A stretch of 64,000 bases of DNA, from the NCBI GenBank assembly GCA_024404505.1, contig JAKSPU010000002.1, positions 3,773 to 67,772 of the forward strand, given 5' to 3'. The stretch is from Clostridia bacterium. GTDB taxonomy: Bacteria > Bacillota > Clostridia > Oscillospirales > CAG-272. A program made the translations under genes and the position numbers. Of this stretch, positions 22,587 to 44,898 are shown one piece after another (within the stretch, counting starts at the first letter, position 1; every line of letters begins with the position of its first letter). The notes below the pieces were generated by a model. The model had not been told where the DNA came from. It made no database searches and saw only the letters and a list, made by a program, of their open reading frames with translations.

Positions 22587-22622
22587 CCTCCTTCCCCACA
22601 GCCATTTGGCAGGGGAAGGAGG
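22587..22622 (-). promoter_or_regulatory. SD-sequestering hairpin (riboswitch expression platform)
   Basis: On the minus strand, CCUCCUUCCCC (22622-22612) pairs perfectly over 11 bp with GGGGAAGGAGG (22597-22587). The latter contains the folT Shine-Dalgarno sequence. Confidence 0.65.
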
Positions 22623-22688
22623 AATCGAACCCGCCGCACGCACAATATACGCGTTCAGCGGGAGGGTTCTCCCAAGCCTCGACCAGAT

Positions 22689-22811
22689 GAAGCGGGATGC
22701 AGACCCCGGACCGCAACGACCCGATGAGAGCGCGTGTTTCGTCCGGCAGACAACTCCCCGTCCTGCCGGCACTCAGGCAGGATGCCTGATACGCCCGGAG
22801 CCTTACTCTTC
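22689..22811 (-). promoter_or_regulatory. Candidate THF-I (tetrahydrofolate) riboswitch aptamer
   Basis: The minus-strand RNA reads GAAGAGUAAGGCUCCGGGCGUAUCAGG ... ACGAA ... GCGGUCCGGGGUCUGCAUCCCGCUUC. This parallels the E. siraeum THF aptamer as I recall it (GGAGAGUAG-P2-GCGUUAAGUG ... ACGAA ... GCGGU-P2'-UGCAUCCGCUCC). P1 GAAGAG/CGCUUC and P2 GGCUCCGG/CCGGGGUC pair. The interior is longer than in the reference. Confidence 0.6.
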
Positions 22812-22827
22812 AAATTTTTGTACTATC

Positions 22828-24514: not shown

Positions 24515-25948
24515 ATGAATACACAGTATCAAAAGCCGGACGCACCGGAGCGCAAGGCTCCGAAGCCCGCGTCCGCCGGTCACGAAAAGGACCGTGATCC
24601 GATTGAAAAAAAGCCTCCCTACGCCTCGCTGAACGCACGGAAACTGTCCGTCTGCCTGTGTGCGCTGTGTGCGGTCGTGTTCTTCGTGTGGGGGCTGCTG
24701 TTCTTCCTGCGGCCTTCCGTATCCGAGACGGAAAAGCGCGAGCTGACGCGCTTCCCGGCGCTCACGTGGAGCGGCTTCTGGTCCGGAGAGTGGACCGAGC
24801 AGATCAGCCTGTGGTACGCGGACACGTTCCCGGGCCGCGACGGCCTGACGACAGCCTTCCACGGGATGCAGGGGCTGTACGGCATCCGGCGGGAGCAGTT
24901 TGAGGGCGGAACGGGAGACGACATCCCGGACGGTACCATGCCCGAGGATTTCACCGTTCCGGACGAGCCGGAAACCGACGATCCCTCCGCGCACAGCGGC
25001 GGGGAGACCATCGGCGGCTTCTACGTATCGGGCGACACCGCCTACGAGCTGTACTATTTCAACGAAACAAACAGCTACCGCTATGCGGCGGTGGTCAAAA
25101 AGGCAGCCGCGGCGCTCAAGGGGCAGGCACAGGTCTACGATATGGTCGTCCCGCTCTACTACACCTTCTCCCTCGGCTCCGACGTACAGAAGGAGTGCGG
25201 GGCCTCGGACGGCAAAAAGGTCATGGAGTTCATTTACTCGGGCCTCGGGGACGACGTGAAGACCGTGGATATCTATTCCGCGCTGGCAGCGCACAAGGAT
25301 GAGTACATATTCTTCCGCACCGACCACCATTGGACCGCGACGGGCGCCTATTGGGCGTACGACGCGTTCTGCCGTGAGGCCGGGATCACGCCGACTCCCC
25401 TGTCCTCCTACGAGAAGCTGACCTTTGAGGGCTTCCTCGGGACTCTCTACGCCAAGACCAACGAGCCCGCGGCGCTGCGGAACAACCCGGACAAGGTCGA
25501 GGCCTATGTGCCGGTCGGGACGAACGCCATGGTCATCGTGAACAGGAACGGGCAGACGGAGTCCGTCTACCCGATCGTGCAGCGCAAGACGGACATCTTC
25601 TATCAGAACGCTGCCTCCAAGTACAACTGCTTCATCGCCGGTGACAACCCGCTGACCACGATCCACAACGAGAATATCTCCGCGTCCCGCAAGGGGACGT
25701 CCGTCGTGCTGATCAAGGAGTCCTTCGGGAACGCGTTCGCGCCCTTCCTCGTGGACAGCTTCGAGTATGTGTACGTCATCGACTACCGTTACTTCGCGGG
25801 CGAGCCCGACGCGTCCGGTGATCTTGTCCACGCCGACCTGACCTCGTTCGTCACAGCCCACAACGTCAGCACCGTCATCTTCCTCAACAACGTCGACGCG
25901 ACCACCGCGGCGCCCCGTCTCGCGGAGTTGGAGAAGCTGGTAAGATAA
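24515..25948 (+). CDS. DHHW family protein (AlgX/AlgJ-like SGNH partner of MBOAT)
   Basis: N-terminal TM anchor and the signature FFRTDHHWT. Lies 20 nt after the MBOAT stop. Confidence 0.85.
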   Translation: MNTQYQKPDAPERKAPKPASAGHEKDRDPIEKKPPYASLNARKLSVCLCALCAVVFFVWGLLFFLRPSVSETEKRELTRFPALTWSGFWSGEWTEQISLWYADTFPGRDGLTTAFHGMQGLYGIRREQFEGGTGDDIPDGTMPEDFTVPDEPETDDPSAHSGGETIGGFYVSGDTAYELYYFNETNSYRYAAVVKKAAAALKGQAQVYDMVVPLYYTFSLGSDVQKECGASDGKKVMEFIYSGLGDDVKTVDIYSALAAHKDEYIFFRTDHHWTATGAYWAYDAFCREAGITPTPLSSYEKLTFEGFLGTLYAKTNEPAALRNNPDKVEAYVPVGTNAMVIVNRNGQTESVYPIVQRKTDIFYQNAASKYNCFIAGDNPLTTIHNENISASRKGTSVVLIKESFGNAFAPFLVDSFEYVYVIDYRYFAGEPDASGDLVHADLTSFVTAHNVSTVIFLNNVDATTAAPRLAELEKLVR

Positions 25949-25959
25949 TGAGGAACACC

Positions 25960-26240
25960 GGGGCGCTGCCCCGGACCCCGGGATGCTCCCGGGGCTCTGC
26001 CCCGGACCCCGCTTAAACCTTTCTTGAAAGAAGGGTTTAAGGATCCCAAGAACTTTAATAGAAAAGAATGACCAAGGTTTGGTTTTACGCTCAACCTTGG
26101 TCATTCTTTATTCTTCTGTATAAAAGTTCTTGAGATTCTCAAGGACTTCTTTCAAGAAGTCCTTGAGCGTCTGAAGGGCTTGCCCTTCAGAATGTGCTGG
26201 GCAGAGCCCTGCTCGCGTCTCCGGATGCAGGGCAGAGCCC
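25960..26240. repeat. Composite intergenic repeat, copy 3 (head-to-head units between convergent genes)
   Basis: Forward unit: GGGGCGCTGCCCC 25960, GGGGCTCTGCCCC 25991, hairpin 26013-26040, AAGAACTTT 26048-26056. Inverted unit: AAAGTTCTT 26123-26131, hairpin CTCAAGGACTTCTTTCAAGAAGTCCTTGAG 26138-26167, GGGCAGAGCCC at 26199 and 26230. Confidence 0.85.
26063..26109. terminator. Bidirectional 17-bp hairpin at the centre of repeat copy 3
   Basis: AAAGAATGACCAAGGTT-(13 nt containing TTTTACGC)-AACCTTGGTCATTCTTT. Confidence 0.7.
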
Positions 26241-26259
26241 TGCTCGTACTATATACCTG

Positions 26260-27303
26260 TCACTTCGTCCCGATCGTGCAGCTCTCCCCGTCGGAGGCAA
26301 AGCTGACCGTGCCGTCGTAGGTGTAGTAGACGGCGGAGAACACGGCCTTCATCTTGGTCACGATCGCGCCGGCGAGCGACGTTCTGGCGTCGGTGTGGAC
26401 GACGCAGTACCGCGGCTGAAGGACGTCCAGCGCGTTGAGCTCGCCCTTGTCGGCGGACGCACCGTGGTGCGGGATCTTGCACAGCGTCACGGTCGACAGC
26501 CCGCGTGCCTGCCAGAGCGGCATATATTCCGCCATGCGTTCCCCCTCGGCGTCGCCGCAGAACAGCAGCTTCATGCTGCCGAAGGTCATATAGGTGATCA
26601 GGGAGAAATTGTTCTCTTCCGCGTCGACGTTGTCCACGTCGGAGCCCATCTCCCTGCCGCGCTCGTGGCCGGGCAGACCGGTCGCGTTGATCCACAGGTG
26701 CGCGTACCCGAGATCAAGTTCCACGTCCTCGTCATACAGGCGATGCACCTCGGCGGACGAGGCGGCCAGCGCCTCCGCCATCTTGCGGTACAGAGAGGAG
26801 TTGCGGATATAGTCGGGCATATAGACGGTCTTGACGTCGTAGCTGTTCAGCACGCGGGTCGCGGTGCCGATGTGGTCGTTGTCATAGTGCGTGAGGATCA
26901 ATAGGTCGATGACGGAGACGTTCTGCGCGGAAAGCGCGGCCTGAACGGCGGAGAAATCGTCGTTCTCACCGGTGTCCATGAGGATGACCTTGTCGTCCGC
27001 ACGGATCAGGATGCAGTCGGACTTGCCCGTTTTCAGAAAATCGACGTACAGCCGGTGCTCGGCATCCTCATAGGGATCCTCATCAAAGCCTATGGAGGGG
27101 GTCGTCTCGCTTTCCGGCTCCGTGTCCCACGACAGGGGACCGCCCGTGGATGGCTCCCGGGTATCGGCCCCGGGACCGAGGGTCAGCGTGCCGTCCTTGC
27201 CGCTGATCGTACCGTCCGGATTGAGTATCAACCCGGAGCAGGCCGTCAGGGACAACAGCAGCGCGGCCAGCAGAAGGATCGCGGAATATCTGATGCGTTT
27301 CAA
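26260..27303 (-). CDS. MBL-fold metallo-hydrolase lipoprotein (ComEC C-terminal-domain-like)
   Basis: Start assigned to TTG 27303 (RBS AGAGAGG 7 nt upstream), giving MKRIRYSAILLLAALLLSLTAC (lipobox). Metal motif is ILTHYDNDHIG. The longer listed ORF overlaps the upstream gene. Confidence 0.75.
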   Translation of the reverse strand: MKRIRYSAILLLAALLLSLTACSGLILNPDGTISGKDGTLTLGPGADTREPSTGGPLSWDTEPESETTPSIGFDEDPYEDAEHRLYVDFLKTGKSDCILIRADDKVILMDTGENDDFSAVQAALSAQNVSVIDLLILTHYDNDHIGTATRVLNSYDVKTVYMPDYIRNSSLYRKMAEALAASSAEVHRLYDEDVELDLGYAHLWINATGLPGHERGREMGSDVDNVDAEENNFSLITYMTFGSMKLLFCGDAEGERMAEYMPLWQARGLSTVTLCKIPHHGASADKGELNALDVLQPRYCVVHTDARTSLAGAIVTKMKAVFSAVYYTYDGTVSFASDGESCTIGTK

Positions 27304-27319
27304 AGCAGTACCTCTCTTG

Positions 27320-28072
27320 TTACTCCCCGCTCCATTCGGACAGGGCGGTCTTGTCAGCGCCGGACAGCCGGTACGGCTCGCGCTTCTGCAGGTAATCGTA
27401 CACGGGCAGGGCACCGTACGCCTCTCCCTCGTCGTAGTGGACGTCGTTGACGTAGTATACGTCCATGAAGACGTACAGGATCGCGGGATCGCTCATGTCC
27501 ACGCCGTCAAAGACAAAGCGGCGGTAGTTGTACAGGCTTTTTTCCATGCCCGTATGAGACGTCGGCTGCACGCGGACGTATTTTACGCAAGCGGGGTCGT
27601 TGCTCTCGTTGTCGCTCTCGATGTCAGGCGTCAGGTCGTAAGCGATGAGCAGCGTCACGTCGTACAGCTCCTCGGTGCGGTCGGGCAGCTCAGGGAGGCT
27701 GTAATCCTCCGCGAGGTGCCGGATGGTCGAATTATTGTAGCGAAAGATGAGCTGCACCTGATCGCAATCCTCGATGAACAGCGCTCTGGGGCAGGCGAAG
27801 TAGCCCCGGCAGTGGTCGGCGCGCGTGATCGTGTCGAGATCGTTCCAGAAGACGGACAATTCCTTTCCGCTCTCCCCGGCGGTCTGATAGGCGGCAGCCA
27901 GCGCATCGTTCGGTGTGAGCGTGGACATCTCCTTGGGGACCCGTGCCGACAGCAGGCGCCAGAGCAGGATGCCGAAGGTGCCGATGACGAGCGTCAGCAG
28001 GATGCCACGGCCGATCCACCACAGGACGCCATGCTCCTCCTGATCGTATTCATCCTTCGTCATAGTTCTCAT
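27320..28072 (-). CDS. Membrane-anchored protein of unknown function
   Basis: One N-terminal TM helix (WWIGRGILLTLVIGTFGILLW). Start ATG overlaps the ruvX stop (ATGA). No domain recognised. Confidence 0.6.
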   Translation of the reverse strand: MRTMTKDEYDQEEHGVLWWIGRGILLTLVIGTFGILLWRLLSARVPKEMSTLTPNDALAAAYQTAGESGKELSVFWNDLDTITRADHCRGYFACPRALFIEDCDQVQLIFRYNNSTIRHLAEDYSLPELPDRTEELYDVTLLIAYDLTPDIESDNESNDPACVKYVRVQPTSHTGMEKSLYNYRRFVFDGVDMSDPAILYVFMDVYYVNDVHYDEGEAYGALPVYDYLQKREPYRLSGADKTALSEWSGE

Positions 28073-28947: not shown

Positions 28948-31122
28948 TTACATTCCATACCCGTTCCGGGCGCGGGGCTTCTGATAGTAGGCTTCGAGGA
29001 TCCGGCAGGAGGTCATCGCCGCGTAGGAGCCGCCTCCGGCGCGCTCGATGACGGAGACGACCACGATGTCGGGATCCCGGGAGGGAGCGCAGCAGACGAA
29101 CAGACCGTTGTCGGTCAGTTTGCCGCCGGTCTGCGCGGTACCGGTCTTGCCCGCGACCGTCACCGGTACGTTCGTGAGGTACCGGGAAATGGAGGCGGTA
29201 TCGGTCACGACCTGCTCCATGCCGGTGATGATCTCGTTCAGGTACACCTGATCGATCTGCATGGAGTCAACTACCGCGGGGGCCTTGACCAGCACGTCCT
29301 GCCGCGTGGTGAAATCGCGGACGCGGGACAAAAGGTGCGCCTCGTAGCGCGTCCCGCCGTTGACGATCGTGGAAATGTACATACCGAGCTGGAGGGGCGT
29401 GAATACGTTCTCGGATTGTCCGATCGCGGCGGCGATGGTGTCGGTCGGCTGCCAATCCACGCCGTGCGACAGCTCACGGTACGCCGGACCGGCCAGAATG
29501 CCCGTGGATTCGGGCAGCTCGATGCCCGTATGCTCCCCGAGCCCGTACAGTTTGCAGTAGCGGTTCATCAGCGTGATGCCGAGCCGGCGGCCCGTCTCGT
29601 AGAAGAAGCAGTTGCAGGATACGCGGACCGCCTCGCGGACCGTGATCGCGCCGTGCTTGTGTACGGCGCTTGTCGTGCTGTTGTAGATCCAGCAGTCGGG
29701 CTGGTAGCTCTGATAGTAGGTGTAAACGCCGTCGCAATCGAGCAGCGTATCCGGCGTCAGGACGCCTTCCGTCATCGCGGCGACGGCTACGCCGGGCTTG
29801 AAGGTCGAGCCGGGCGCGTACTGCCCGGACAGCGCACGGTTGTACAGCGGCAGGGCGTCATTGGCGGCCAGACTGTTGTACTGCTCGTTGAACGTGGATA
29901 GGTCATAGGTCGGATAGGAGGCGATGGCGAGGATCTCGCCCGTTTTGGGGTCTACGGCGACAGCCGCGCCGGACTTGCAGTCCGTGCGGTTGAAGGAGGA
30001 GCGGATATAGTTAACGTTCTCCGCCAGCGCGTTTTCCGCGGCGATCTGAACGTCGATGTCGATGGTCAGGTAGACGTCCTGTCCGGCAACAGGCTCGGTT
30101 TTCCAATACTCGTCCACGATCCTGCCGGATCTGTCCTCGACGATGACGCGGATGCCGTCCTGACCGTGCAGTATGGATTCAAAGGCGGCCTCGACGCCGG
30201 AGATGCCGACCGTGGCGTTCATGTTGTAGCCAAGTTCCTTGTAGGCCGGCCAATCCTCGGCGTAGATAGGTCCGGTCTGACCGAGGATATGCGAGGCATA
30301 GCCGGGGTACGCGTACACGCGCTTGGCAGTCAGGCGGAAGGAGGATCCGGGGACGCCCCACTCGCGGACGCAGGTGATCGTGTCCATGGACACGTCGGAC
30401 GCAAGGATATAGTCGTTCGCCTTGGAGAAGCCGGTGGCGGCCATGCCCCACAGGACGCGGAGCAGGCGGTCGATTTGCTCGTCGGAGAACACGCGCTCCC
30501 CGTCGACTTCGGCTGTCAACTCGTACTTGTCCTCAAAGTAGGCCGTGAGCTGCTGCGCCGTCACGTATTGCAGCGGGTCCGCGTCAAACATCGCTTCGGC
30601 CTTGTCGCGTCCGACGCCCTTGTTGACGCGGATGCGTTTGATCGCCGTGGCCCGCACGCCGGTGCTTTCCAGCACGGCGGCCAGCGTGGCGCGCTCCTTG
30701 GTATCGGGCAACCCGACGCCGACCGAGTACTCAAGGTAGGGGTACACACCCTCAAAGGGATAGCGGTCGTTGCACAGCCTGCCGGCTTCGCCGCGCGAGG
30801 TGACGATGCTGAGCGCGTCGAGAATGGCGCGGTCAAAGGTGATCATATCCTTCGGCATGACGGCGTAGTCGAAGGTCAGGTCGTAGACGTAGCGGTTGGT
30901 GACGATGGGCGTGCCGTTCCGGTCGTAGATCTCACCGCGGACCGCCTGCACGATCTCGGTGCGGGTGGTCGTGCCGTCCTGCTTATGTCCGCGGATATTC
31001 TCACTGTTGAGCTGGAGGACGCCCAGCCGGATGACATAGACAAGGCAGACCAGCAGAAACGCGGCGCCGAGTCCGTACAGACGTATGACGCGCCGCTGCG
31101 CGCTGCGTTTGTTTGCGTCCAT
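28948..31122 (-). CDS. Penicillin-binding protein 2 (class B transpeptidase)
   Basis: N-terminal TM anchor plus STFKP, SCN and KTGTA active-site motifs. RBS is AAGGAGG. Confidence 0.9.
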   Translation of the reverse strand: MDANKRSAQRRVIRLYGLGAAFLLVCLVYVIRLGVLQLNSENIRGHKQDGTTTRTEIVQAVRGEIYDRNGTPIVTNRYVYDLTFDYAVMPKDMITFDRAILDALSIVTSRGEAGRLCNDRYPFEGVYPYLEYSVGVGLPDTKERATLAAVLESTGVRATAIKRIRVNKGVGRDKAEAMFDADPLQYVTAQQLTAYFEDKYELTAEVDGERVFSDEQIDRLLRVLWGMAATGFSKANDYILASDVSMDTITCVREWGVPGSSFRLTAKRVYAYPGYASHILGQTGPIYAEDWPAYKELGYNMNATVGISGVEAAFESILHGQDGIRVIVEDRSGRIVDEYWKTEPVAGQDVYLTIDIDVQIAAENALAENVNYIRSSFNRTDCKSGAAVAVDPKTGEILAIASYPTYDLSTFNEQYNSLAANDALPLYNRALSGQYAPGSTFKPGVAVAAMTEGVLTPDTLLDCDGVYTYYQSYQPDCWIYNSTTSAVHKHGAITVREAVRVSCNCFFYETGRRLGITLMNRYCKLYGLGEHTGIELPESTGILAGPAYRELSHGVDWQPTDTIAAAIGQSENVFTPLQLGMYISTIVNGGTRYEAHLLSRVRDFTTRQDVLVKAPAVVDSMQIDQVYLNEIITGMEQVVTDTASISRYLTNVPVTVAGKTGTAQTGGKLTDNGLFVCCAPSRDPDIVVVSVIERAGGGSYAAMTSCRILEAYYQKPRARNGYGM

Positions 31123-31167
31123 GGCGGGGACCTCCTTTCACGACAGCGGTATCAGGATAGGGATGCG

Positions 31168-32286
31168 TTACATCATGATGAGCGAAAAGACGGTCAGACC
31201 AAGGCAAAGCACGATGAACAGCAGGACACCGGCATTGAGGTACATGACGCTCGCGGTCTCCCCTCTCGTAAGGCTCTGCGTGCCGCGGCTGAGCTTGCGC
31301 TTGCGGAACAGGACGATGGTCAGCACGACGGACGCGATGAGCGCCGCGTATATCATCATGGTGTACAGGAAATAGACCAGCATACCGAGCGGGTTGGCCT
31401 GCAGCAGCTCCATGAGCGTCTCGGGCGATTCAAGCGCCTCCTCGCCGATGAGGGAGATCATCAGCTTGGACAGCACGCCGCCCACGAAGTTCCCGGCTGC
31501 ATGGAGCGATACGGACAGCCAATACTTGCCGGTGCGCGTGTAGACGTAAGCAAGGATCAGACCGATCAGGAAGGTGTAGATCAGCTGGAAGAAATTGCGG
31601 TGGAACAGCGCAAACATGGCGGCGGACAGAAGGATCGCGGCCGTATCGCCGTACTGACGGGTGCGGTCGATGAGCAGCTTGCGGAACATGAATTCCTCGC
31701 CGATCGGCGCGATGACGACCGTAGCAAGGAAGATCAGCCAGAGCGGAGCGTCTGCCGTCATGGATTGCAGGATATCGGCATAATCCTTGCCGGTGATGGC
31801 GGACAGCAGGTTCATGAGTCCGTTGCTGATCAGGCTGCCGATATACAGGTATCCGACGCAGATGATGAACAGCACGATCCACCAGCCGAAGTGGAAGCGG
31901 GGCTTTTTGACCTCGACACCGCGGAACGGGTAGGTCTCGTTGTGCGGGGCGGCGGGAATGGCCTTCAGGATGAGCAGCATACAAGGCAGGGCAATGGCGT
32001 ACAGGGGAACGAGGGACAGCGCCCAATCGAACCACCACGTCGTGAGCAGCTCGGGCTTGAGAAGAAGGGCAAGGTAGGAGAAGCCGTATCCGCAGGCGGT
32101 GAAAAGCACCGCGAGCAGGGAGAAGCCGAGTCCCACGCGGGTCATGTACGCGCGGTGCGCGGACAGGGGCAGCTTGGGGAAAACAGGCTCGGCTTGGGCC
32201 GATGTCTCGACGGTCTCCGGCGTTTCGGCCAGGTAGTAGACGGAGCTGTCCTGCTTTTCGGGATTTTCAGGCTCGTAAGGATTCAT
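31168..32286 (-). CDS. CPBP family intramembrane glutamic endopeptidase (CAAX-protease-like)
   Basis: Motifs GEEFMFR, FALFH and HAAGNF in a multi-pass membrane protein. RBS is AAGGAG. Confidence 0.85.
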   Translation of the reverse strand: MNPYEPENPEKQDSSVYYLAETPETVETSAQAEPVFPKLPLSAHRAYMTRVGLGFSLLAVLFTACGYGFSYLALLLKPELLTTWWFDWALSLVPLYAIALPCMLLILKAIPAAPHNETYPFRGVEVKKPRFHFGWWIVLFIICVGYLYIGSLISNGLMNLLSAITGKDYADILQSMTADAPLWLIFLATVVIAPIGEEFMFRKLLIDRTRQYGDTAAILLSAAMFALFHRNFFQLIYTFLIGLILAYVYTRTGKYWLSVSLHAAGNFVGGVLSKLMISLIGEEALESPETLMELLQANPLGMLVYFLYTMMIYAALIASVVLTIVLFRKRKLSRGTQSLTRGETASVMYLNAGVLLFIVLCLGLTVFSLIMM

Positions 32287-32318
32287 GATATACTCCTTTC
32301 AGATGCGGGGACGGCGGA

Positions 32319-33344
32319 TCAGAAGAGTCTGCCGAGCAGGCGGCCGGACAGATTCAACTCTCCGCCCCAGAGAGAGGGCGTGCGGATGATGCGGTTGAGG
32401 CCGTTGATCACGCAGTCCAGCGGGTCCTTCGCCACGGTGACGCGCAGACCCGTGCAGCGGCTGATGGCAGCCGCCATGCCGGGGATCACGGCGCACCCGC
32501 CGGTGAGCATGAGGCCGTAGTTATGGATGTCGGCGGAGATCTCAGGCTGGACGCCCTCCAGCGTGAGCAGCGCGATGCGGGCTATGTTTTCGATGGACGG
32601 TGTGATCGCCTCACAGATCTCCCGCGAGCTGACGTTGAGCGCCGCGGCCAGTCCCTCGTCGGATTTCAAGCCGCAGACGGTCATGCTGCCGCGGTCGAGG
32701 CGGGGATCGGCGGAGCCGATCTTCACTTTGAGTGCCTCCCCCGCGGAGTCTGAAATGCGGAGGTGGCGGCGGTTGAGCATATAACTGACGATGGCGACGT
32801 CCAGCCGTTCGCCTGCCATGCGGGCGCTGAGTGCGTTGACGATGCCGCAGGAGCTGATGACGGCTGCCTCGGTGATGCCGCCGCCGATGTTGAGGACCAT
32901 GCAGCCCTGCGGCGACGTGACCCGCAGCCCGGCCCCGACCGCGGCGGCAAAGATCGCGGGGACCTGCGGCACGTCGCGGGCGCCGGCCTCCAGCACGGCG
33001 TTTTCCGCGGCCAGCTTCTCGACCTCGGTGATGCGGTACGGAGTGGCAAGCAGCACGACGGGCTTGTAGAAGGTGGAGCGCAGCTTCTTCTGCGTGAAGT
33101 ACGAATCCAGCATGAGCGCCGTGACCTCAAAGTCGGAGACGACGCCGTCCTTGATCGGCCGGTAAGCCAGAATGCCCTCGGACGTTTTGCCTATCATCCG
33201 GCGGGCCTCGGCGCCCACGGCGATCACCTCGTGGGTCTGGCTGTCAATGGCAGCCGCCGACGGACGGCGCAGGATCACGCCCTCCTCGGGCGTACAGATC
33301 CGGGTATACGCGGTCCCCAGATCAAGACCGATACAACGAGCCAC
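32319..33344 (-). CDS. mreB: Rod shape-determining protein MreB
   Basis: Actin-fold start IGLDLGTAYTRI. GTG 33344 chosen (6 nt after GGAGG) because the listed TTG 33350 abuts the RBS. Confidence 0.9.
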   Translation of the reverse strand: MARCIGLDLGTAYTRICTPEEGVILRRPSAAAIDSQTHEVIAVGAEARRMIGKTSEGILAYRPIKDGVVSDFEVTALMLDSYFTQKKLRSTFYKPVVLLATPYRITEVEKLAAENAVLEAGARDVPQVPAIFAAAVGAGLRVTSPQGCMVLNIGGGITEAAVISSCGIVNALSARMAGERLDVAIVSYMLNRRHLRISDSAGEALKVKIGSADPRLDRGSMTVCGLKSDEGLAAALNVSSREICEAITPSIENIARIALLTLEGVQPEISADIHNYGLMLTGGCAVIPGMAAAISRCTGLRVTVAKDPLDCVINGLNRIIRTPSLWGGELNLSGRLLGRLF

Positions 33345-33389
33345 GGGCAACCTCCTTTCCCGGCTGTGGGCCGGAATGTCGATGCGGAT

Positions 33390-33974
33390 TTATAACATGA
33401 TGCCGAATTCCTGCCTGATCGTGGTCAGCAGCCTGTGCACGGGCAGACCGACGACGTTGAAGTAGTCGCCGCGGATGCCGACGATATACCGGGATGCCTG
33501 CCCCTGAATGGCGTATCCGCCGGCTTTCCCGAAGGGCTCGCCGGTGGCGACGTAGGATTCGATCTCCTCCTCGGTCATGGGGGCGAATTCCACCTCGGTG
33601 ATCTCGGCAGAGGTCACCATGCGGCCCCGGTACCAGACCGCGACACCGGAGGAAACGGTGTGCGTGGTCCCGGCCAGCGCCCGGATCATGCGGACGGCGT
33701 CCTCGCGGTCGGCGGGCTTGCCGAGGAACTGCCCGTTCAGCACGACCAGCGTATCGGACGCGAGGATCATGGTGTCGTTGTCCAGCGTTCCCTCGGACGC
33801 CATGACGTCCCGGACCGCCGCGCACTTGCGCGCGGCAATGGCGGACACGCGTCCGGCGGGGTCTGTGAGGTCACAGGTCTCGTCGGCCTCGGAGGTGCGG
33901 ACGGTGAAGGGGATATCGAGAGCCGACAGAATCTCCCGGCGGCGCGGGGACCCGGAGGCAAGGATGAGTTTCAT
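33390..33974 (-). CDS. maf: Maf-like nucleoside triphosphate pyrophosphatase (septum formation protein)
   Basis: MKLILASGSPRRREIL signature; 194 aa. Confidence 0.9.
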   Translation of the reverse strand: MKLILASGSPRRREILSALDIPFTVRTSEADETCDLTDPAGRVSAIAARKCAAVRDVMASEGTLDNDTMILASDTLVVLNGQFLGKPADREDAVRMIRALAGTTHTVSSGVAVWYRGRMVTSAEITEVEFAPMTEEEIESYVATGEPFGKAGGYAIQGQASRYIVGIRGDYFNVVGLPVHRLLTTIRQEFGIML

Positions 33975-34261: not shown

Positions 34262-35491
34262 ATGGTACAATCACCCTTGGCGGACGCGATCCGACCGAAG
34301 AATATGAACGAGATCGTCGGCCAGCAGCACCTGTTCGGTCCGTCCGGTGTCCTGCGCCGCATGGTCGAGGCGGGACGCGTCACGAATATGATCTTTTTCG
34401 GCCCGCCCGGGACCGGCAAGACGACCGCCGCGTCTGTCATCGCGGCCATGTCGGGCATGACCTTCCGCAAGCTGAACGCCACGACTGCGTCCCTGCAGGA
34501 TGTGAAGGATATTCTGTCCGAGACGGAGGGGATGTTCGGCACGAACGGGATCCTGCTCTACCTTGACGAGATCCAGTATTTCAATCGCAAGCAGCAGCAA
34601 TCCCTGCTGGAGTACATGGAGGACGGCCGCATCACGCTGATCGCGTCCACGACCGAGAATCCGCATTTTTACGTCTACAACGCCATCATATCGCGGTCTT
34701 CGCTGTTCGAGTTCAAGCCGGTCGCGCCGCGGGACGTGCTGATCTCTTTGAACCGCGCGCTGGCATGGCTGAACGAGCAGGGCGGGACGTCCACGGTCCT
34801 GCCGGAGAAGGTCGGTCTTGCGCTGGCCGAGGGGGCGGGCGGTGACGTCCGCCGGGCGGTCGGTCTGCTGGAGAACGCCTACTACGCCACGGGCTTCGAG
34901 CCGGATGCCGTGATCACGCTCGAGTGTGTTTCCGCCTTTGACGCCGGTGTCGGCAACTTCAGCGATGACGTCCACTACGATCTGCTCGGGTGTCTGCAGA
35001 AGTCCATCCGCGGCTCGGATCCGGATGCCGCCGCCTTCTATGTTGCCAAGATGCTCGCGCTCGGTGAGATGTTCTCGCTTTGCCGCCGTCTGCAGGTCAT
35101 TGCATCCGAGGATATCGGGCTGGCCTACCCGCAGGCTGCCGCGATCGTCCGCGCCTGCTGCGAGTCCGCGCGGGAGCTGGGGATGCCGGAGGCGCAGATC
35201 CCGCTGATCCACGCGGCTATGCTGCTCGCCACGTCGCCGAAGTCCAACTCCGCTTACAACGCCCTGCACGCGGCCATGGCCGACGTCGAGGCCGGGCGCG
35301 GTGCCCGCATCCCGGAGCATCTGCAAAGCCCTTTGTTCAAGGGCTACAAGTACCCCCACGACTACGAAAATCACTGGGTCGACCAGCAGTACCTGCCCGA
35401 CGACCTCAAGGACCGCACTTACTACGTCCCCGGCCCCAACAAGACCGAGCAGGCCGCCGCGGCGTATTGGGATGCAATAAAAAAGAAATAG
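34262..35491 (+). CDS. rarA: Replication-associated recombination protein A (AAA+ ATPase)
   Basis: Walker A FFGPPGTGKTT, Walker B LYLDEIQ, and a MgsA C-terminal domain (HLQSPLFKGYKYPHDY). Confidence 0.92.
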   Translation: MVQSPLADAIRPKNMNEIVGQQHLFGPSGVLRRMVEAGRVTNMIFFGPPGTGKTTAASVIAAMSGMTFRKLNATTASLQDVKDILSETEGMFGTNGILLYLDEIQYFNRKQQQSLLEYMEDGRITLIASTTENPHFYVYNAIISRSSLFEFKPVAPRDVLISLNRALAWLNEQGGTSTVLPEKVGLALAEGAGGDVRRAVGLLENAYYATGFEPDAVITLECVSAFDAGVGNFSDDVHYDLLGCLQKSIRGSDPDAAAFYVAKMLALGEMFSLCRRLQVIASEDIGLAYPQAAAIVRACCESARELGMPEAQIPLIHAAMLLATSPKSNSAYNALHAAMADVEAGRGARIPEHLQSPLFKGYKYPHDYENHWVDQQYLPDDLKDRTYYVPGPNKTEQAAAAYWDAIKKK

Positions 35492-35649
35492 GGGAGCGTG
35501 CGGGGCGCTGCCCCACACCCCGGGACGCGCTTGCGGGGCTCTGCCCCGCGCCCCGCTCAAGGACTTCTTGAAAGAAGTCCTTGAGAATCTCAAGAACTTT
35601 TATACAAGGATAAGAATTGGCTGAGGTTCAGTTTACGCCAAACGAGATC

Positions 35650-35680
35650 GGTGGGTGCCGTTATGGGCGCCCACCTTTTT
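35650..35680 (+). terminator. Intrinsic terminator (shared repeat module) after rarA
   Basis: GGTGGGTGCC-GTTATG-GGCGCCCACC followed by TTTTT. Confidence 0.8.
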
Positions 35681-35945
35681 AGGTACCATCGCGCAACGCG
35701 CGGTGGTACCTTAACGCCCACGCGGGCCCCGCTCGTGATCGGGCAGATGGCATCTGCCCGATCCGTGCAAACCCGAGGGAACGCCTCGCGCGTTCCGCGA
35801 TTGGGGACCCACCCCCCGGCCCCCTCCCGTGCGCGGGAGGGGATAGGGGAGGTAGGTCCCCGAGCGCCGGAGGCACGAGGACTCTTGCCCGCAGGCGCTC
35901 GGTCCCCTCTTCCGAGCGAGGATAGGGCCCCCGCGATTGCGTTTC

Positions 35946-35978
35946 AAAAAAGGTGGGCGCCCATGACGGCACCCACCT
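35946..35978 (-). terminator. Intrinsic terminator (shared repeat module) after lysC
   Basis: Minus strand reads AGGTGGGTGCC-GTCAT-GGGCGCCCACCT followed by TTTTTT. Confidence 0.8.
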
Positions 35979-36129
35979 GTCTTGTTCGGCGTAAACCAAA
36001 CTCTCGTTTATTCATTGCCCAAAAAGTTCTTGGGATTCTTAAACCCTTCTTTCAAGAAGGGTTTAAGCGGGGTCCGGGGCGGAGCCCCGCGCGTCCCTTG
36101 GGGTCCGGGGCAGAGCCCCGCGCGTCCCT

Positions 36130-37455
36130 TTACCCGACGAACTCTGCGTAAATCGCCTTGACGGCGGCCTCGTACTCATCCTCGGAGATGCCGACGATGA
36201 TGTTCAACTCGCTCGAGCCCTGGTCGATCATGCGGATGTTCACGTCGGCGCGGGCCAGCGCGTCGCAGACGCGTGCGGCGGTACCCTTGGCCTTGATCAT
36301 GCCGCGGCCCACCACGGCCACGAGCGCGAGATTGTCCTCGATGAACACGGAGTCGGGGCGGACGGCACGGGAGATCGATTGCATCAAGCGGTCGCGGCGG
36401 CCCTCCAGCACGGAGGAAGAGACCACGACGCTCATCGTGTCGATGCCCGAGGGCAGATGCTCGAAGGAGATGTCGTTGTCCTCGAAGACCTCAAGGACCT
36501 TGCGGCCGAAGCCGATCTCGGCGTTCATCAGATCCTTCTCGATGGTCAGGACCGAGAAGCCCTTCTTGCCGGCGATGCCCGTGATCACGGTCTCGGAATC
36601 GTAGGAGGTAGGATGCGCCACGATCATGGTGCCGGGGTCGGACGGACGGTTGGTGTTGCGGATGTTGATCGGGATGCCGGCTGTACGGACAGGGAACACG
36701 GCGTCCTCGTGCAGCACGGTCGCGCCCATGTAGGACAGCTCACGCAGCTCGCGGTAGGTGATCTCCTGAATGATCAGCGGGTCCTTCACGATGCGGGGAT
36801 CCGCCATCATGAAGCCGGACACGTCGGTCCAGTTCTCATACAGATCGGCCTTGATCGCACGGGCAACGATGGAGCCCGTGATGTCGGAGCCGCCGCGGGA
36901 GAAGGTCTTGATCGTGCCGTTGGGCATGGCTCCGTAGAAGCCGGGGATGACCGCATGCGGCGTCCGGGACAGCTCCTCGGCCAGCGCGTCGTTGGTCCTT
37001 TCCTCGTCCAGCGTGCCGTTTTCCTTGAAGAAGATCACGTTCTCGGCGTCCACGAAGTCGTAGTCGAGATACTTGGCCAGGATCAACGCGTTCAGGTACT
37101 CGCCGCGGCTGGCGGCGTAGTCACGGCCGGACGAGTGCAGCATGGCGTTCTTGACGTACTCCAGCTCACCACTGAGGTCAAAGGTCAGGCCGAGGTCGGC
37201 GATGATCGCGTTGTAACGGTCGGTGATGCGGTCGTAGGCGGCATCGATGACCTCACGGGGCTCGTGCGCCTTGATCAGCTCGTAGCATTGATACAGAAGG
37301 TCGGTGACCTTGGTGTCACCCTTTTCCCGCTTGCCGGGTGCGCTCGGCACGACGTAGCGGCGGGTGGGATCGTCCCGGATGATGCGGGCGACCTGACGGA
37401 AATGATCGGCGTCAGCGAGCGAGCTGCCGCCGAACTTGACAACTTTGACAGACAT
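36130..37455 (-). CDS. lysC: Aspartate kinase
   Basis: MSVKVVKFGGSSLAD start, amino-acid kinase fold and C-terminal ACT region; 441 aa. Confidence 0.92.
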   Translation of the reverse strand: MSVKVVKFGGSSLADADHFRQVARIIRDDPTRRYVVPSAPGKREKGDTKVTDLLYQCYELIKAHEPREVIDAAYDRITDRYNAIIADLGLTFDLSGELEYVKNAMLHSSGRDYAASRGEYLNALILAKYLDYDFVDAENVIFFKENGTLDEERTNDALAEELSRTPHAVIPGFYGAMPNGTIKTFSRGGSDITGSIVARAIKADLYENWTDVSGFMMADPRIVKDPLIIQEITYRELRELSYMGATVLHEDAVFPVRTAGIPINIRNTNRPSDPGTMIVAHPTSYDSETVITGIAGKKGFSVLTIEKDLMNAEIGFGRKVLEVFEDNDISFEHLPSGIDTMSVVVSSSVLEGRRDRLMQSISRAVRPDSVFIEDNLALVAVVGRGMIKAKGTAARVCDALARADVNIRMIDQGSSELNIIVGISEDEYEAAVKAIYAEFVG

Positions 37456-42494: not shown

Positions 42495-42527
42495 AAAGTT
42501 CTTGGGCGGGGTGCGGGGCAGAGCCCC
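42495..42527 (-). repeat. Truncated intergenic repeat unit, copy 5
   Basis: GGGGCAGAGCCCC at 42515-42527 lies 14 nt from the HIT stop, and AAAGTTCTT is at 42495-42503. The CTTCTTGAAAGAAG hairpin is mostly missing. Confidence 0.7.
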
Positions 42528-42540
42528 GCATATCCGCTCC

Positions 42541-42882
42541 TTACGCCATACTGTCTGCCATCTGCCGTCCGCCCAGCAGGTGGAAGTGCAGATGCTTCAC
42601 GGACTGGCAGGCGTCGGGGCCGCAGTTGGACACGATGCGGTAGCCGTTGACAAGTCCCTCTGCGGCGGCGATCTTCGGGATGACCTCAAAGATGTGCGCC
42701 ACGACCGCGCTGTTGGTCCCGTCGATGCCGTCCGCGGACGGAATGTGCGTCTTGGGGACGATCAGCACGTGTACCGGAGCCATCGGGTTGATGTCGCGGA
42801 ACGCGTAGACCAGCTCGTCCTCGTATACCTTGGCAGAGGGGATGTCCCCCGCGATGATCCTGCAGAAAATGCAATCGTTCAT
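42541..42882 (-). CDS. HIT family (histidine triad) nucleotide-binding protein
   Basis: MNDCIFCRIIAGDIPS start and the HLHFHLLGG triad; 113 aa. Confidence 0.9.
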   Translation of the reverse strand: MNDCIFCRIIAGDIPSAKVYEDELVYAFRDINPMAPVHVLIVPKTHIPSADGIDGTNSAVVAHIFEVIPKIAAAEGLVNGYRIVSNCGPDACQSVKHLHFHLLGGRQMADSMA

Positions 42883-42983
42883 AATTATAGGAAAACCTCC
42901 TGTATCATCTGAGATACCCCTATTGTACACCCGGAACGCCGTCCTGTCAAGCGGGCGGCGTGAAAAACGAAAGGAAATCCCGT

Positions 42984-44102
42984 ATGTTTGATCCTTCACC
43001 GTCGATCCCGGACCTGTGGCACTACCTCAAAGCCGCTGCCGATGCGGGAAAGACCGTCGTCATGTACGGCATGGGCAACGGAGCGGACAAGGTGCTGGAC
43101 GTCTGCACGTCTTACGGCATCCCCGTGTCGGACTGCTTCGCCAGCGACGGCTTCGTCCGCGGTCATCTCTTCCACGGCAAGCGCGTCCTGACCTTCTCCG
43201 AGACCTGTGAGAAGTACGGTGCGGACAATCTCATCGTCCTTCTGTCGTTCGGCTCGTCCCGCCCCGAGGTGCTGGACACCATCCGTGCCGTTGCTTCGCG
43301 TTGCGAGCTGTATATCCCCGACCTGCCCGTCAGCGGACCGGACCTCTTTACGGCCGGATTCGCCGCCGCCAACCGGGACCGCATCGACGCCGCCCGCGCC
43401 CTGTTCGCCGACGATGCCTCCCGCGCGGTTTTTGACGGCCTGATCCGTGCCAAGCTGTCCGGCCGTATGGACGAGCTGGAGGCGATCGCCTGTGACCGGG
43501 CGGAAACGTGGCGCATCCTGCCCGCCGGCACGTTCCGGTCCGCCATGGACCTCGGCGCATACACGGGCGACAGCCTCCGTGAGCTGCTGGCGTATGCGCC
43601 CGCGCTGACGACGGCTCTCTGCATGGAGCCGGATGCCCGCAGTTTCCGCAAGCTGGACGCGTACTGTCAGGCGTTGACGGGCGCGGATACGCCGCTGCGT
43701 GCCGTTGCCGTTAACAAGGGCGCGTGGTCGGAAAACACCGTTCTCACATTCCACGGCTCCGGCAACCGCAACGCGTCGCTCGTGAACGGGATGCAGTCCA
43801 AGCAAAAGCTGACCGAAACGCCCGTCGCGGCGCCGGACAGCGAATGGACGTCCGCATTCCCGGACATGCCTGTCGATTTCATCAAGTACGACGTCGAGGG
43901 AGCGGAGCGGGAGGCCCTGCTCGGCTCGCGCACGCTGATCGTGCGCGACAGCCCCGCGCTGCTCGTGTCCGTCTACCATGCGCCTGCCGATCTCTGGGAG
44001 CTGCCGCTGCTCGTCCACGAGATGAATCCCGCCTACCGGCTGTACCTCCGCCGCATGAGGGGCGTGCCCGCGTGGGATATCGAGTTGTATGCGGTGAAAT
44101 GA
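42984..44102 (+). CDS. FkbM family methyltransferase
   Basis: SAM motif MDLGAYTGDS, NKGAWSENTVLTF and IDFIKYDVEGAERE. ATG 42984 preferred over the listed GTG 42960. Confidence 0.75.
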   Translation: MFDPSPSIPDLWHYLKAAADAGKTVVMYGMGNGADKVLDVCTSYGIPVSDCFASDGFVRGHLFHGKRVLTFSETCEKYGADNLIVLLSFGSSRPEVLDTIRAVASRCELYIPDLPVSGPDLFTAGFAAANRDRIDAARALFADDASRAVFDGLIRAKLSGRMDELEAIACDRAETWRILPAGTFRSAMDLGAYTGDSLRELLAYAPALTTALCMEPDARSFRKLDAYCQALTGADTPLRAVAVNKGAWSENTVLTFHGSGNRNASLVNGMQSKQKLTETPVAAPDSEWTSAFPDMPVDFIKYDVEGAEREALLGSRTLIVRDSPALLVSVYHAPADLWELPLLVHEMNPAYRLYLRRMRGVPAWDIELYAVK

Positions 44103-44349: not shown

Positions 44350-44898
44350 ATGGCCGATATCCTGCAGGACCGGGAGATCATCTGTCTTCTGGAAGCACGT
44401 GACGAGACCGCGGTCAGGGAACTGCAGCGCAAGTACGAGCGATATTGCCTGACGGTGGCGATGAATATCCTGCACAACGCGGCTGACGCGGAGGAATGCG
44501 TCAACGACGTTTATCTCAAGACGTGGAACAGCATCCCGCCCGCCCACCCGACCTCGCTTCGCCTGTTTCTCGCCAAGCTGACCCGCAACACGGCACTTGA
44601 CCGCTATCGGGTGCGCAGACGGCGCGGGTCGGACTTTGAGGTCGCGCTGGAGGAGCTGGAAAGCGTTCTCGCGGTACCTGAGGAGGACGCGGACGAGCTT
44701 CCGGACCTTGTCAACGAGTTTCTGGACGGACTTCCGTCGACGGAACGCACGACCTTCCTGCTTCGCTACTGGCACGCGATGCCGGTCGCGGACATCGCCC
44801 GCCGGGGCGGGTGGACGATCAATGCCGTATCCGTGCGATTGTATAAGACCCGCGAAAAGCTGCGGGCGTTTCTTGCCGAGAGGGGGTATCATGTATGA
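44350..44898 (+). CDS. ECF-type sigma-70 family sigma factor (copy 2, paralog of 13452-14018)
   Basis: DAEECVNDVYLKTWNSIPP, versus NDTYLKTWNSIPP in copy 1. Region 4 is VADIARRGGWTINAVSVRLYKTREKL. It has the same ...GY.V-stop / ATG overlap. Confidence 0.85.
   Translation: MADILQDREIICLLEARDETAVRELQRKYERYCLTVAMNILHNAADAEECVNDVYLKTWNSIPPAHPTSLRLFLAKLTRNTALDRYRVRRRRGSDFEVALEELESVLAVPEEDADELPDLVNEFLDGLPSTERTTFLLRYWHAMPVADIARRGGWTINAVSVRLYKTREKLRAFLAERGYHV

Follow-up and report, generated by a model that had tools for sequence, protein, structure and literature searches.

Gene-end repeat mosaics of gut Clostridia with strand-specific, three-way covariation in an intrastrand-triplex-type layout

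What are the hairpin-rich repeats that lie between the genes of a Clostridia bacterium of the Oscillospirales (CAG-272 in GTDB), and on which strand, and in which molecule, would they fold? The stretch of DNA analyzed here, called the window, comprises 64,000 nt (positions 3,773 to 67,772 of contig JAKSPU010000002.1, assembly GCA_024404505.1), and an initial annotation of its sequence had described a modular repeat family in its intergenic regions, with 35492-36129 as the leading example. The repeats are real, larger than first described, and no artefact. Their unusual part is a three-way, strand-specific covariation, which would make them an undescribed variant of the intrastrand-triplex-type repeats, set in gene-end mosaics like those of bacterial interspersed mosaic elements (BIMEs). 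BIME-like mosaics of self-folding modules, whose core would take the layout of an intrastrand triple helix, are on balance the probable and the best explanation of the whole.

The biological role of bacterial intrastrand DNA triplexes has been open since the BoxC/PIT repeats were described, and TM(ECO), the sole well-studied family, is too uniform to show selection on the fold itself. The present family is a natural experiment in which the stems, and even the apex, change in all three strands together and in a strand-specific manner. Because all three strands change together, the fold hypothesis can be tested with a few oligonucleotides and compensatory mutants.

Repeat units and the mirrored third segment

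Eight intergenic regions of the window carry repeat modules. Seven had been named in the initial annotation, and on re-reading all seven contain the modules described; an eighth copy (59136-59191, minus strand), with the apex CTTCCTGAAGGAAG and the third segment AAGGAC, had been overlooked. Allowing one mismatch, CTTCTTGAAAGAAG has 9 matches in the window and GGGGCTCTGCCCC has 17, compared with 0.01 and 0.18 expected from dinucleotide shuffles, and AAGAACTTT has 10 matches compared with 0.11 expected. The ordered modules were recovered by a repeat finder as the direct-repeat families D4, D5, D7, D8, D11-D13, and D19. The segments 35520-35680 and 63309-63469, which are unlinked, share 91% identity over 161 nt, including the unstructured spacer, and folding of a full unit relative to shuffles gives z = -5.9 as DNA and z = -6.9 as RNA. 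Five modules had been distinguished: tandem mini-hairpins (module 1), a larger hairpin (module 2), AAGAACTTT (module 3), a further conserved block (module 4), and a terminator hairpin (module 5). Their order is reproduced, except that the 9191 and 10896 regions lack module 4 and that no module-2 hairpin is present in 42495-42529 or in the right half of the mosaic (57546-57721). Module 1 had been described as starting 5-25 nt after a stop codon, but at 9191-9394 a native terminator intervenes and the first mini-hairpin starts 61 nt downstream of the stop codon. Module 5 was scored as an intrinsic terminator on both strands, at 35650-35675 (+) and 35978-35951 (-), and has the features of a Rho-independent terminator, with a T-run after a G+C-rich stem-loop on the upstream gene's strand; hairpins homologous to it constitute repeat family D13. 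The elements occupy ~2.2 kb (37%) of the ~6.0 kb of intergenic DNA in the window, a remeasurement of the ~2.1 kb first estimated. Eleven copies and 18 module-1 hairpins were counted, with at least four stem types side by side within 64 kb.

One genome per GTDB species was scanned with the pattern CTTCTTGAAAGAAG-N8-20-AAGAACTTT, and at least 106 loci in at least 58 assemblies match it, so the copies are not confined to the window. Ninety-five distinct instances were aligned. They share a layout consisting of a first arm (X), CTTCTT, GA, AAGAAG, a second arm (X'), a short turn, a third segment, and CTTT, in which the third segment mirrors the second arm and can equally be read as a parallel complement of the first. 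Modules 2 and 3, previously listed apart, belong to one unit: AAGAACTTT and the "linker" preceding it form one third segment that mirrors and co-varies with the second arm. The second arms TTTCCCAC, TCCCCCTCAA, TTTTCCCCACA, and TTTTTAAG are accompanied by the third segments ACCCTTC, ACTCCCTTC, CCCCTTTC, and AATTTC, respectively. In one series (first arm/second arm/third segment), all three strands shift by single steps, from GTGGGAAA/TTTCCCAC/ACCCTTC through GTGGGGAA/TTCCCCAC/ACCCCTC to GTGGGGGA/TCCCCCAC/ACCCCCC. In the variable part of 81 instances, the mirror scores 1.90, the direct repeat 0.12, and the reverse complement -3.70, and the mirror relation reaches z = 8.0 with permuted partners as the null and z = 12.6 with shuffled letters. 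The run lengths in the arm and the third segment are correlated (0.84 for T runs and 0.80 for C runs). In 36 instances with other apexes, which were not selected by the search pattern, the variable-part mirror has z = 5.6.

The module-2 apex had been called invariant, but the variants CTTCCT, TTTTT, CTTTT, TTTCT, CTCTT, and TTTTC were found, each with a matching third segment. The mirror rule holds for seven apex types; the third-segment block is AAGAA for CTTCTT/AAGAAG, AAGGA for TTCCT/AGGAA, AAAGA for TTTCT/AGAAA, GAGAA for CTCTT/AAGAG, AAAAG for TTTTC/GAAAA, and AAAAA for TTTTT/AAAAA (17/20 forward copies, compared with 3/20 reverse). Because four asymmetric apexes match the mirror exactly, and match the reverse complement only with a mismatch and a wobble, the third segment is not Watson-Crick paired. 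A switch in which it pairs with the first arm and loop suits the mirror-symmetric apexes and is excluded by the four asymmetric ones. Module 1 is a miniature of the same design, in which GGGGC-NNN-GCCCC is followed by CCCC and GGGAC-NNN-GTCCC by CCCTG (Fisher p = 7e-8). A G-quadruplex or i-motif formed by tandem module-1 copies was rejected, as it leaves the A-T/T covariation of GGGAC/GTCCC/CCCTG unexplained.

The earlier argument that compensatory stem changes reflect selection on nucleic-acid structure is confirmed by 122 distinct hairpins, in which 93.8% of the cells are paired (68.3% in shuffles) and 531 double-sided changes are found (170 in shuffles). Compensatory change occurs in 12 of the 14 stem pairs, of which the five apex pairs are complementary by selection of the instances and the nine outer pairs are not. 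The three-way step is kept in more than 100 stem variants, seven apex types, and dozens of species. The three blocks that define ITxF sequences, i.e., two Watson-Crick blocks and a third following triplex rules with the correct polarity, are present in the 81 + 36 instances and in all seven apex types. Counting the apex, the stems measure 11-22 bp; the first loop has 2-4 nt and the turn nominally 0-3 nt, with one copy having a turn of 24 nt (9312-9335). By definition (PMC4666352), ITxF stems are 6-15 nt with no more than one mismatch, and their loops are 1-6 nt. The arms are of mixed composition, purine-rich and then pyrimidine (GGGAAA-CTTCTT), with some mixed outer bases, and are not homopurine/homopyrimidine blocks. 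A generic hairpin-plus-mirror scanner with strict local scoring recovered 5 units only, junction indels being too costly in score. A coding or read-through peptide (LKDFLKEVLENLKNF-like) was also considered and rejected: the spacing between the apex and AAGAAC varied over the 8-20 nt searched without a 3-nt periodicity, and the frame relative to the stop codon varies. A promoter within the unit was rejected on the basis of a single weak consensus match.

Strand, molecule, and position at gene ends

On the strand called "forward" in the initial annotation, the internal stem mismatches comprise 25 A:C and 5 G:T in 23 different stem contexts; these A:C mismatches are G.T wobbles on the complementary strand. 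Where such mismatches occur, the third segment sides with the second arm in 18 cases and with the first arm in none, with 5 ties. Because the third segment follows the second arm 18:0, the hub of the fold would be the complement of the second arm, i.e., the purine strand of the complementary strand. The A:C-to-G:T ratio is 8:2 in sense and 6:0 in antisense gene contexts, and G.U-type cells are almost absent from the 122-hairpin set; because the bias is the same in both contexts and these cells are nearly absent, it is not an mRNA effect. Mutational bias was rejected as the source of the A:C excess, since coding- or leading-strand deamination predicts, by reasoning, the opposite (G:T), and the bias is independent of gene orientation.

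The pyrimidines of the third segment are parallel to the purine run of the first arm, and the AAGAA block is antiparallel to the purine block of the second arm. On the complementary strand, the polarity rules also hold with the motif types exchanged; by sequence logic, classes I and IV of intrastrand triplexes would fall on one strand and classes III and II on the other. An alternate-strand reading is the only one that fits, because the blocks mix purine and pyrimidine. In designed alternate-strand triplexes and R-loop-Y-loop-Y oligonucleotides, the third strand binds purines on alternating strands, parallel in the pyrimidine motif and antiparallel in the purine motif, without reversing its direction, and a base step is skipped at the 5'-purine/pyrimidine-3' junction. 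The polarity logic would be identical here; those triplexes are synthetic, whereas the present family would be natural and evolving. The data favor a fold in which the complementary strand, as single-stranded DNA, would form a purine-motif, alternate-strand triplex. Read on that strand, the proposed fold would be 5'-AAAG-TTCTT-G-(purine third segment)-turn-(purine arm)-CTTCTT-TC-AAGAAG-(pyrimidine arm)-3'. In it, G.G-C and A.A-T triples of the purine motif would join the purine third segment, in antiparallel orientation, to the purine arm, T.A-T triples of the pyrimidine motif would join the TTCTT part, in parallel orientation, to AAGAAG of the other arm, and the two parts together would form an alternate-strand triplex with correct polarity throughout. 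Oligonucleotides of TM(ECO)/BoxC form stable purine-motif intrastrand triplexes in vitro (PMC4666352).

The units are placed at gene ends. In the window, 10 of the 11 units are in the sense orientation behind a gene, each ahead of its own terminator, in line with the proposed rule that units are forward behind plus-strand genes and inverted behind minus-strand genes; across other genomes the ratio is only ~2:1, which is a bias and not a rule. In these genomes, 17 copies lie between convergent and 3 between divergent genes, tandem contexts are sense in 30 cases and antisense in 14 (p = 0.02), and the median distance from the stop codon to the apex is 39 nt. Many units start immediately past the stop codon (TAA followed by GGAACGCC... 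or by AGGGACGCGC...). The gene context was obtained with a gene caller based on G+C content at third codon positions (GC3), which was validated against Pfam hits. It replaced greedy calling by the length of open reading frames (ORFs), which picks antisense ORFs in 60% G+C DNA and had suggested no orientation bias and many divergent sites; length-based gene calling is unreliable around mosaics in G+C-rich DNA. Spurious ORFs of 100-600 codons arise from the mosaics at 35651-36151 (+), 57367-57684 (-), and 9247-11094 (-) and at L204 1-87, and one mosaic ORF is annotated as a gene in a public assembly (product PLKGFLEEALKDPKNF...).

Such placement would suit an RNA element, i.e., a structure of the 3' untranslated region or intercistronic spacer that stabilizes the upstream message against 3' exonucleases or aids termination, like repetitive extragenic palindromic (REP) sequences, possibly by way of a pyrimidine-motif RNA triplex (U.A-U and C+.G-C) on the sense strand. 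The RNA folding score given above and the argG-argH copy, which is inside an operon and conserved in place, agree with this role, and pyrimidine-motif intrastrand triplexes can form in RNA (PMC4666352). However, approximately one-third of the copies are antisense to the neighboring gene, and the sense-strand mismatches are A:C and not G:U even in sense contexts, with G.U cells almost absent, which is the opposite of what selection on RNA predicts. The third segment tracks the pyrimidine arm and not the purine arm, which would be the hub of a sense-strand triplex, and such a triplex would contain C+.G-C runs. Runs of C+.G-C triples are unfavorable at neutral pH. The apex part of the third segment consists of purines that mirror a purine arm, and RNA is reported not to form triplexes of the purine motif (PMC4666352). 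We regard an RNA element as rather unlikely; the mismatch asymmetry points to the strand complementary to "forward" and to DNA rather than 3' untranslated RNA.

A function in double-stranded DNA would read the same sequences differently, with the half-sites CTTCTT, AAGAAG, and AAGAAC bound by a nucleoid or regulatory protein, or with H-DNA or cruciforms in the supercoiled duplex pausing replication or transcription at gene ends. Each unit contains three AAGAA-type half-sites with an almost invariant central GA, the second arm and third segment alone form a mirror repeat of the H-DNA type, motifs of this type are linked to polymerase arrest and genome instability, and the synteny beside the mosaics is rearranged relative to close relatives. 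On the other hand, the half-sites change freely between subfamilies while the three-way relation holds; a duplex binder needs no stem complementarity and H-DNA needs no first arm, yet the first arm co-varies. The strand-specific A:C bias would be invisible to anything that reads the duplex, and a double-stranded function appears quite improbable.

Distribution, turnover, and means of spread

Among the matches listed, the carriers are uncultured Clostridia, Oscillospiraceae, "Eubacteriales," a Ruminococcus metagenome-assembled genome (MAG), Eubacterium sp. CAG:180, and others, and their sources are ruminant, chicken, and human guts. Other gut Clostridia, represented by 414 kb of argH loci from the ArgH metagenome scan (relatives all ≤66% identical, serving as a negative control), have 1 match, so that gut Clostridia do not carry the family in general. 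The repeats match no family in Rfam 15, the best match in 35450-36170 scoring 22.6 bits against a gathering score of 76, and a literature search for the motif sequence and for Oscillospiraceae/Ruminococcaceae repeats gave nothing relevant. The repeats are an undescribed, lineage-restricted family of uncultured gut Clostridia/Oscillospirales. The earlier statement that they belong to no named family holds against Rfam and the papers searched, as does the likeness drawn to BIME, REP, and BOX elements; the nearest relatives, BoxC/PIT/TM(ECO), had not been considered. A phage or plasmid origin was rejected, with 6 loci in IMG/VR and no BLAST match in the plasmid and phage collections.

In several Ruminococcus-like and CAG-180-like MAGs (L016, L017, L077, L080, L087, L096, and L098), the core unit is the outer part of composite inverted repeats of ~230 nt per arm. 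These arms hold further conserved hairpins (GTAGCCG...CGGCTGCTAC, CCAATCCCG...CGGGATTGG, and CCGCTACCGGATAGAAA) around a variable center, which may be RNA genes or more mosaic modules. Single canonical units are present in L028 (a Selenomonadaceae MAG, 197-kb contig) and L001 (an Erysipelotrichaceae MAG); these could reflect either horizontal spread or a binning or labeling error.

Orthologous sites were compared in close relatives found via ArgH homologues. The argG-argH copy (59136-59191) is conserved at 51/53 positions in relatives with 94% and 91% ArgH identity, whereas the flanking spacer is ~50% identical, which indicates that this copy is constrained in place. At the 3' end of argH, strains with 99% identity have a 445-nt mosaic and the 91% relative has only a 72-nt terminator. 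One of the 99% strains (L200) keeps a complete core hairpin there, whereas the window and another strain have lost 33 nt between two direct repeats, CTCAAGGAC and CTCAAGAAC. At the 3' end of the lectin gene, a 392-nt mosaic in the window corresponds to a 45-nt bidirectional terminator in the 94% relative, a clean empty site. At one orthologous site (L026/L060), two species have different stem subfamilies, each with its matching third segment. The relatives have 3 copies in 42 kb and no module-1 hairpins, compared with the 11 copies and 18 module-1 hairpins in the 64 kb of the window. These comparisons show a family that gains, loses, and exchanges copies between closely related genomes. At mgsA, the search for an empty site yielded none, as synteny is rearranged in the 93-94% relatives. 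The maf-mreB-rce1-PBP block (28948-33974) is inverted relative to mgsA, while mreB, rce1, PBP, and mgsA are co-linear in L107/L109 (93-94% MgsA identity); none of the relatives examined has the same genes downstream of mgsA, and gene order in the clade is rearranging quickly.

Rapid turnover is also what an ordinary selfish repeat would produce, similar to miniature inverted-repeat transposable elements (MITEs) or REPs, in which a trans-acting transposase, e.g., of the Y1/REP-associated tyrosine transposase (RAYT) or IS200/IS605 type, reads the hairpin only and the third segment serves for recognition or guidance or is a by-product, without a triplex. The copy number is high, copies are patchy among close relatives with empty sites and strain-level indels, near-identical copies occur at unlinked loci, and some subfamilies have ends resembling terminal inverted repeats (AAGACCTTGGG...CCCAAGAACTT). 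The strand-specific mismatch bias recalls single-strand DNA substrates, of which the IS608 ends and integron attC sites are examples. However, the Pfam scan of the ~41 called window genes (5 without a Pfam hit) found no transposase, RAYT (Y1_Tnp), or integrase, in agreement with the initial annotation on transposases, and no transposase or RAYT flanked by units was seen in the loci read. The scanned genes are ordinary housekeeping genes, and those flanking the units are housekeeping genes in both orientations (mgsA, aspartokinase, argGH, and RNase Y). The combination of terminal inverted repeats and target-site duplications that defines MITEs was not found; empty sites exist, but there the spacer is exchanged in full. 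The sites compared showed neither a target-site duplication nor a constant flank (including a flanking tetranucleotide) nor a consistent terminal inverted repeat. A sequence read by a protein would stay conserved and not vary as a mirror of the stem in more than 100 variants, and one copy is kept in place well above its flanks. We consider a selfish repeat of this ordinary kind unlikely.

The triplex-type mosaics that we favor would work as follows. The fold would arise when the complementary strand is single-stranded DNA, and selection would preserve the keeping of the fold. The units would multiply and turn over as non-autonomous elements or by gene-end recombination, with a structure-specific agent, encoded outside the window, acting in trans. 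Because each unit carries its own intrinsic terminator, we propose that the units became a standard 3'-end cassette in this genome.

Several observations weigh against this explanation. The register is imperfect, the third segment being ~1 nt shorter than the arm near the purine/pyrimidine junction, the C-G pairs beside the apex are matched by C where G is expected, and the mirror reaches nearly to the turn, which leaves little loop. The commonest subfamily in the window (CTCAAGGA...AATCTC) follows the mirror rule weakly; there the first arm recurs directly in the third segment. Because related MAGs contributed many of the instances, the counts are partly dependent on one another. For TM(ECO), the triplex was not shown by in vivo dimethyl sulfate footprinting, and duplex formation prevails once the complementary strand is present (PMC4666352). 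The lack of a target-site duplication, constant flank, or consistent terminal inverted repeat, and of a transposase, RAYT, or integrase among the scanned window genes, counts against the proposed spread, and the sense bias and tight spacing after stop codons also suit an RNA role. A further and bolder claim, that this is the first natural nucleic-acid family with an intramolecular alternate-strand DNA triplex backed by extensive three-way covariation, and a strand-specific single-stranded DNA triplex under purifying selection, is possible but in our judgment doubtful. If it holds, the triplex could be what an enzyme that propagates the elements recognizes, or instead a device of the host at gene ends during replication or transcription.

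Known repeat families and features of the window

The closest known kind is BoxC/PIT/TM(ECO), here set in a BIME-like mosaic. These repeats of the intrastrand-triplex type are described from E. coli and from ~260 genomes of Proteobacteria (Hoyne and Maher 2000, cited by Holder et al. 2015, PMC4666352), and the intrastrand-triplex classes I-IV describe a hairpin followed by the mirror of one arm as a triplex layout (PMC4666352). Both are short, strictly intergenic, multicopy repeats with three consecutive blocks on one strand, of which two are Watson-Crick complementary and the third mirrors the purine block. They share a purine-motif reading (G.G-C) on one strand and a pyrimidine-motif reading on the other, frequent inverted pairs, no link to a transposase, and local indels or rearrangements between strains. 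TM(ECO) differs in being one highly conserved, G/C-rich class II sequence with 9-nt stems and loops of 3-6 and 3 nt, and because it is a single conserved sequence, it gives no covariation evidence; the stems here vary freely (>100 variants) with three-way covariation. The blocks here mix purine and pyrimidine, so that the third segment must switch strands in an alternate-strand design; the block order would correspond to class I on one strand and to class III on its complement, and the apex and central GA are semi-constant. The units are found at the 3' ends of genes, more often in sense orientation, whereas TM(ECO) has no strand bias and is more often upstream of ORFs, and the hosts are gut Clostridia and not Proteobacteria or Cyanobacteria.

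The core unit has another sequence and block order than the TM(ECO)/BoxC consensus CCCTCNCCC-N3-6-GGGNGAGGG-N3-GGGNGAGGG. Only two near-canonical class II motifs within the mosaics (35820-35852 and 63570-63601) come near it, as variants and not as exact matches. A strict BoxC-like scan (CCCCCTCCC-N6-GGGAGGGG-N3-GGGGAGG) detected the motif at 35820-35852 and gave no match in 50 shuffles or in 857 kb of other loci; the motif at 63570-63601 was found by eye. The shared sequence TAGGTCCCCGAGCGC directly follows both motifs.

Similar to REP/BIME elements, which are extragenic imperfect palindromes of 20-40 bp in hundreds of copies, the repeats form mosaics with alternating orientation between other short motifs, prefer gene 3' ends between convergent or co-directional genes, are transcribed with the upstream gene, and show compensatory stem variation. 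The extragenic palindromes, high copy number, and clustering in gene-end mosaics that characterize REP/BIME are all found here, with the proportions of intergenic DNA and of convergent sites given above. Unlike REPs, they have no GTAG-type head, with no GTAG-like tetranucleotide conserved at the hairpin foot in the aligned instances, and no RAYT (Y1_Tnp) was found among the ~41 scanned genes. REPs lack a mirrored third segment, and their stems are homogeneous within a genome, whereas at least four types occur in 64 kb here. BOX (boxA-boxB(n)-boxC), Correia, RUP, and ERIC elements also have ordered modules, one of them in a variable tandem number (boxB, corresponding to module 1), strong predicted folding, and an intergenic position near genes. 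However, no sequence similarity to them was found, they have terminal inverted repeats, with target-site duplications in the MITE types, and none is of the triplex type. Integron attC sites differ from the repeats, which have housekeeping flanks in both orientations, no integrase in the window scans, and no RYYYAAC/GTTRRRY cores.

The units and mosaics of the window are listed in Table 1.

Table 1. Repeat units, their parts, and related motifs in the window
Feature	Position	Strand	Details
Unit	9195-9257	+	Behind ABC-permease gene 8038-9135; native terminator 9148-9178 precedes
Module-1 mini-hairpin and C-run third segment	9195-9217	+	Part of 9195-9257
Core hairpin CGCAAGCCC-TTCTTGAAAGAA-GGGCTTGCG	9216-9245	+	Part of 9195-9257
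Short third segment and AAGAACTTT	9246-9257		Part of 9195-9257
Sole antisense unit	9290-9380	-	Mirror score 13, direct 7
22-bp hairpin GGGGAGGGAGAAGAA-CTTCTTGAAAGAAG-TTCTTCTCCCTCCCC	9335-9380	-	Part of 9290-9380
Additional hairpin GCCCGCCtttcGGCGGG	~9312-9335	-	Part of 9290-9380; would act as long turn
Mirrored third segment CCCCTCTCTCATTTC and AAGAACTTT	9290-9311	-	Part of 9290-9380
Unit	10894-11104	+	Behind M20 peptidase gene 9415-10878; RNase Y gene downstream; D7, D13
Three tandem module-1 copies	10894-10983		Period 34
Core hairpin and third segment	10984-11029		Part of 10894-11104
Terminator GGTGGGCGCCC...GGGCACCCACC-TTTTT	~11074-11104	+	After spacer
Head-to-head mosaic	25958-26245		Between convergent genes 24515-25948 (+) and 26260-27414 (-)
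Plus unit	25958-26056	+	2 x module 1; core with one apex mismatch, TTTCTT
Shared central hairpin	26066-26107		GGTTTTACGCTC loop
Minus core unit	26123-26171	-	Part of 25958-26245
GGGC-TCT-GCCC mini-hairpin variants	~26172-26245	-	Part of 25958-26245
Unit	35492-35680	+	Behind mgsA (34262-35491); D5
2 x module 1	35500-35555		Part of 35492-35680
Core CTCAAGGA-CTTCTTGAAAGAAG-TCCTTGAG and AATCTC-AAGAACTTT	35556-35600		Part of 35492-35680
GTTTACGCCAAAC box	35631-35643		Part of 35492-35680
Terminator	35650-35680		Part of 35492-35680
Central G+C-rich mosaic modules	35681-35940		
Hairpin GGTACCATCGCGC-AAC-GCGCGGTGGTACC	35682-35712 and 57490-57520		Just past terminators of two mosaics; D12, 84% over 102 nt; without triplex-type third segment
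BoxC/TM(ECO)-like class II motif CCCCCTCCC-gtgcgc-GGGAGGGG-ata-GGGGAGG	35820-35852	+	
Unit	35941-36129	-	Starts immediately past stop codon of aspartokinase gene (36130-37455, -)
2 x module 1	36068-36121		Part of 35941-36129
Core TTAAACC-CTTCTTGAAAGAAG-GGTTTAAG and AATCCC-AAGAACTTT	36023-36071		Part of 35941-36129
GTTTACGCCGAAC	35984-35996		Part of 35941-36129
Terminator	35951-35978		Part of 35941-36129
Deletion derivative	42495-42529	-	Behind HIT-family gene 42541-42999 (-); module 1 fused to CC-AAGAACTTT, core hairpin gone
Head-to-head mosaic	57280-57721		Between BspA-like gene (54094-57276, +) and argH (57722-59122, -)
Plus unit	57280-57490	+	Part of 57280-57721
Central hairpins	57490-57545		Part of 57280-57721
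Minus unit	57546-57721	-	Core hairpin deleted (CTCAAGGAC-TTTCAAAAAG)
Copy overlooked before	59136-59191	-	argG-argH spacer; sense, 13 nt past argG stop codon; CTGGGAGGAAA-CTTCCTGAAGGAAG-TTTCCTCCCAG, then ACCCTCTTTC-AAGGAC-TTT
Mosaic	63290-63668		Between F5/8-type lectin gene (60760-63279, +) and fumarase gene (63672-, -); G+C-rich hairpins at end
Plus unit with terminator	63290-63470	+	Part of 63290-63668
19-bp hairpin	63511-63551		Part of 63290-63668
BoxC-like motif CCCCCTCCC-gcgcac-GGGAGGGGG-ta-GGGGGG	63570-63601	+	By eye, undetected by strict scan

For metagenome practice, the mosaics take up about one-third of the intergenic DNA in this genome, give rise to spurious ORFs, supply terminators, and mark sites where close strains rapidly gain, lose, and rearrange sequence. 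Contigs of three independent close-relative assemblies (L200, L201, and L203) end ~240-310 nt after argH, inside or just after the downstream sequence, which suggests that the repeats fragment short-read metagenome assemblies.

Among the other features of the window, an exact-protein look-up of the HIT-family protein gave no match. The only Rfam hit in the window is a tetrahydrofolate (THF) riboswitch (RF01831, 62.8 bits) at 22688-22812 (-), directly upstream of a gene for the S component of an energy-coupling factor (ECF) transporter (21970-22716, -), presumably of the folate family. The BspA-type leucine-rich-repeat surface protein gene at 54094-57276 (+) contains ~10 tandem 123-nt (41-amino-acid) repeats (54499-55721, 60-83% identity), and a second BspA-like gene is located at 15410-16822. 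The 92-nt segment 13569-13660 is 76% identical to 44467-44558, which belongs to a sigma-70 gene of the ECF type (44350-44898, with region 2/4 domains). The segment 13569-13660 is located in 13108-13789, outside the called genes and the Pfam scan, and may belong to a second, paralogous sigma factor.

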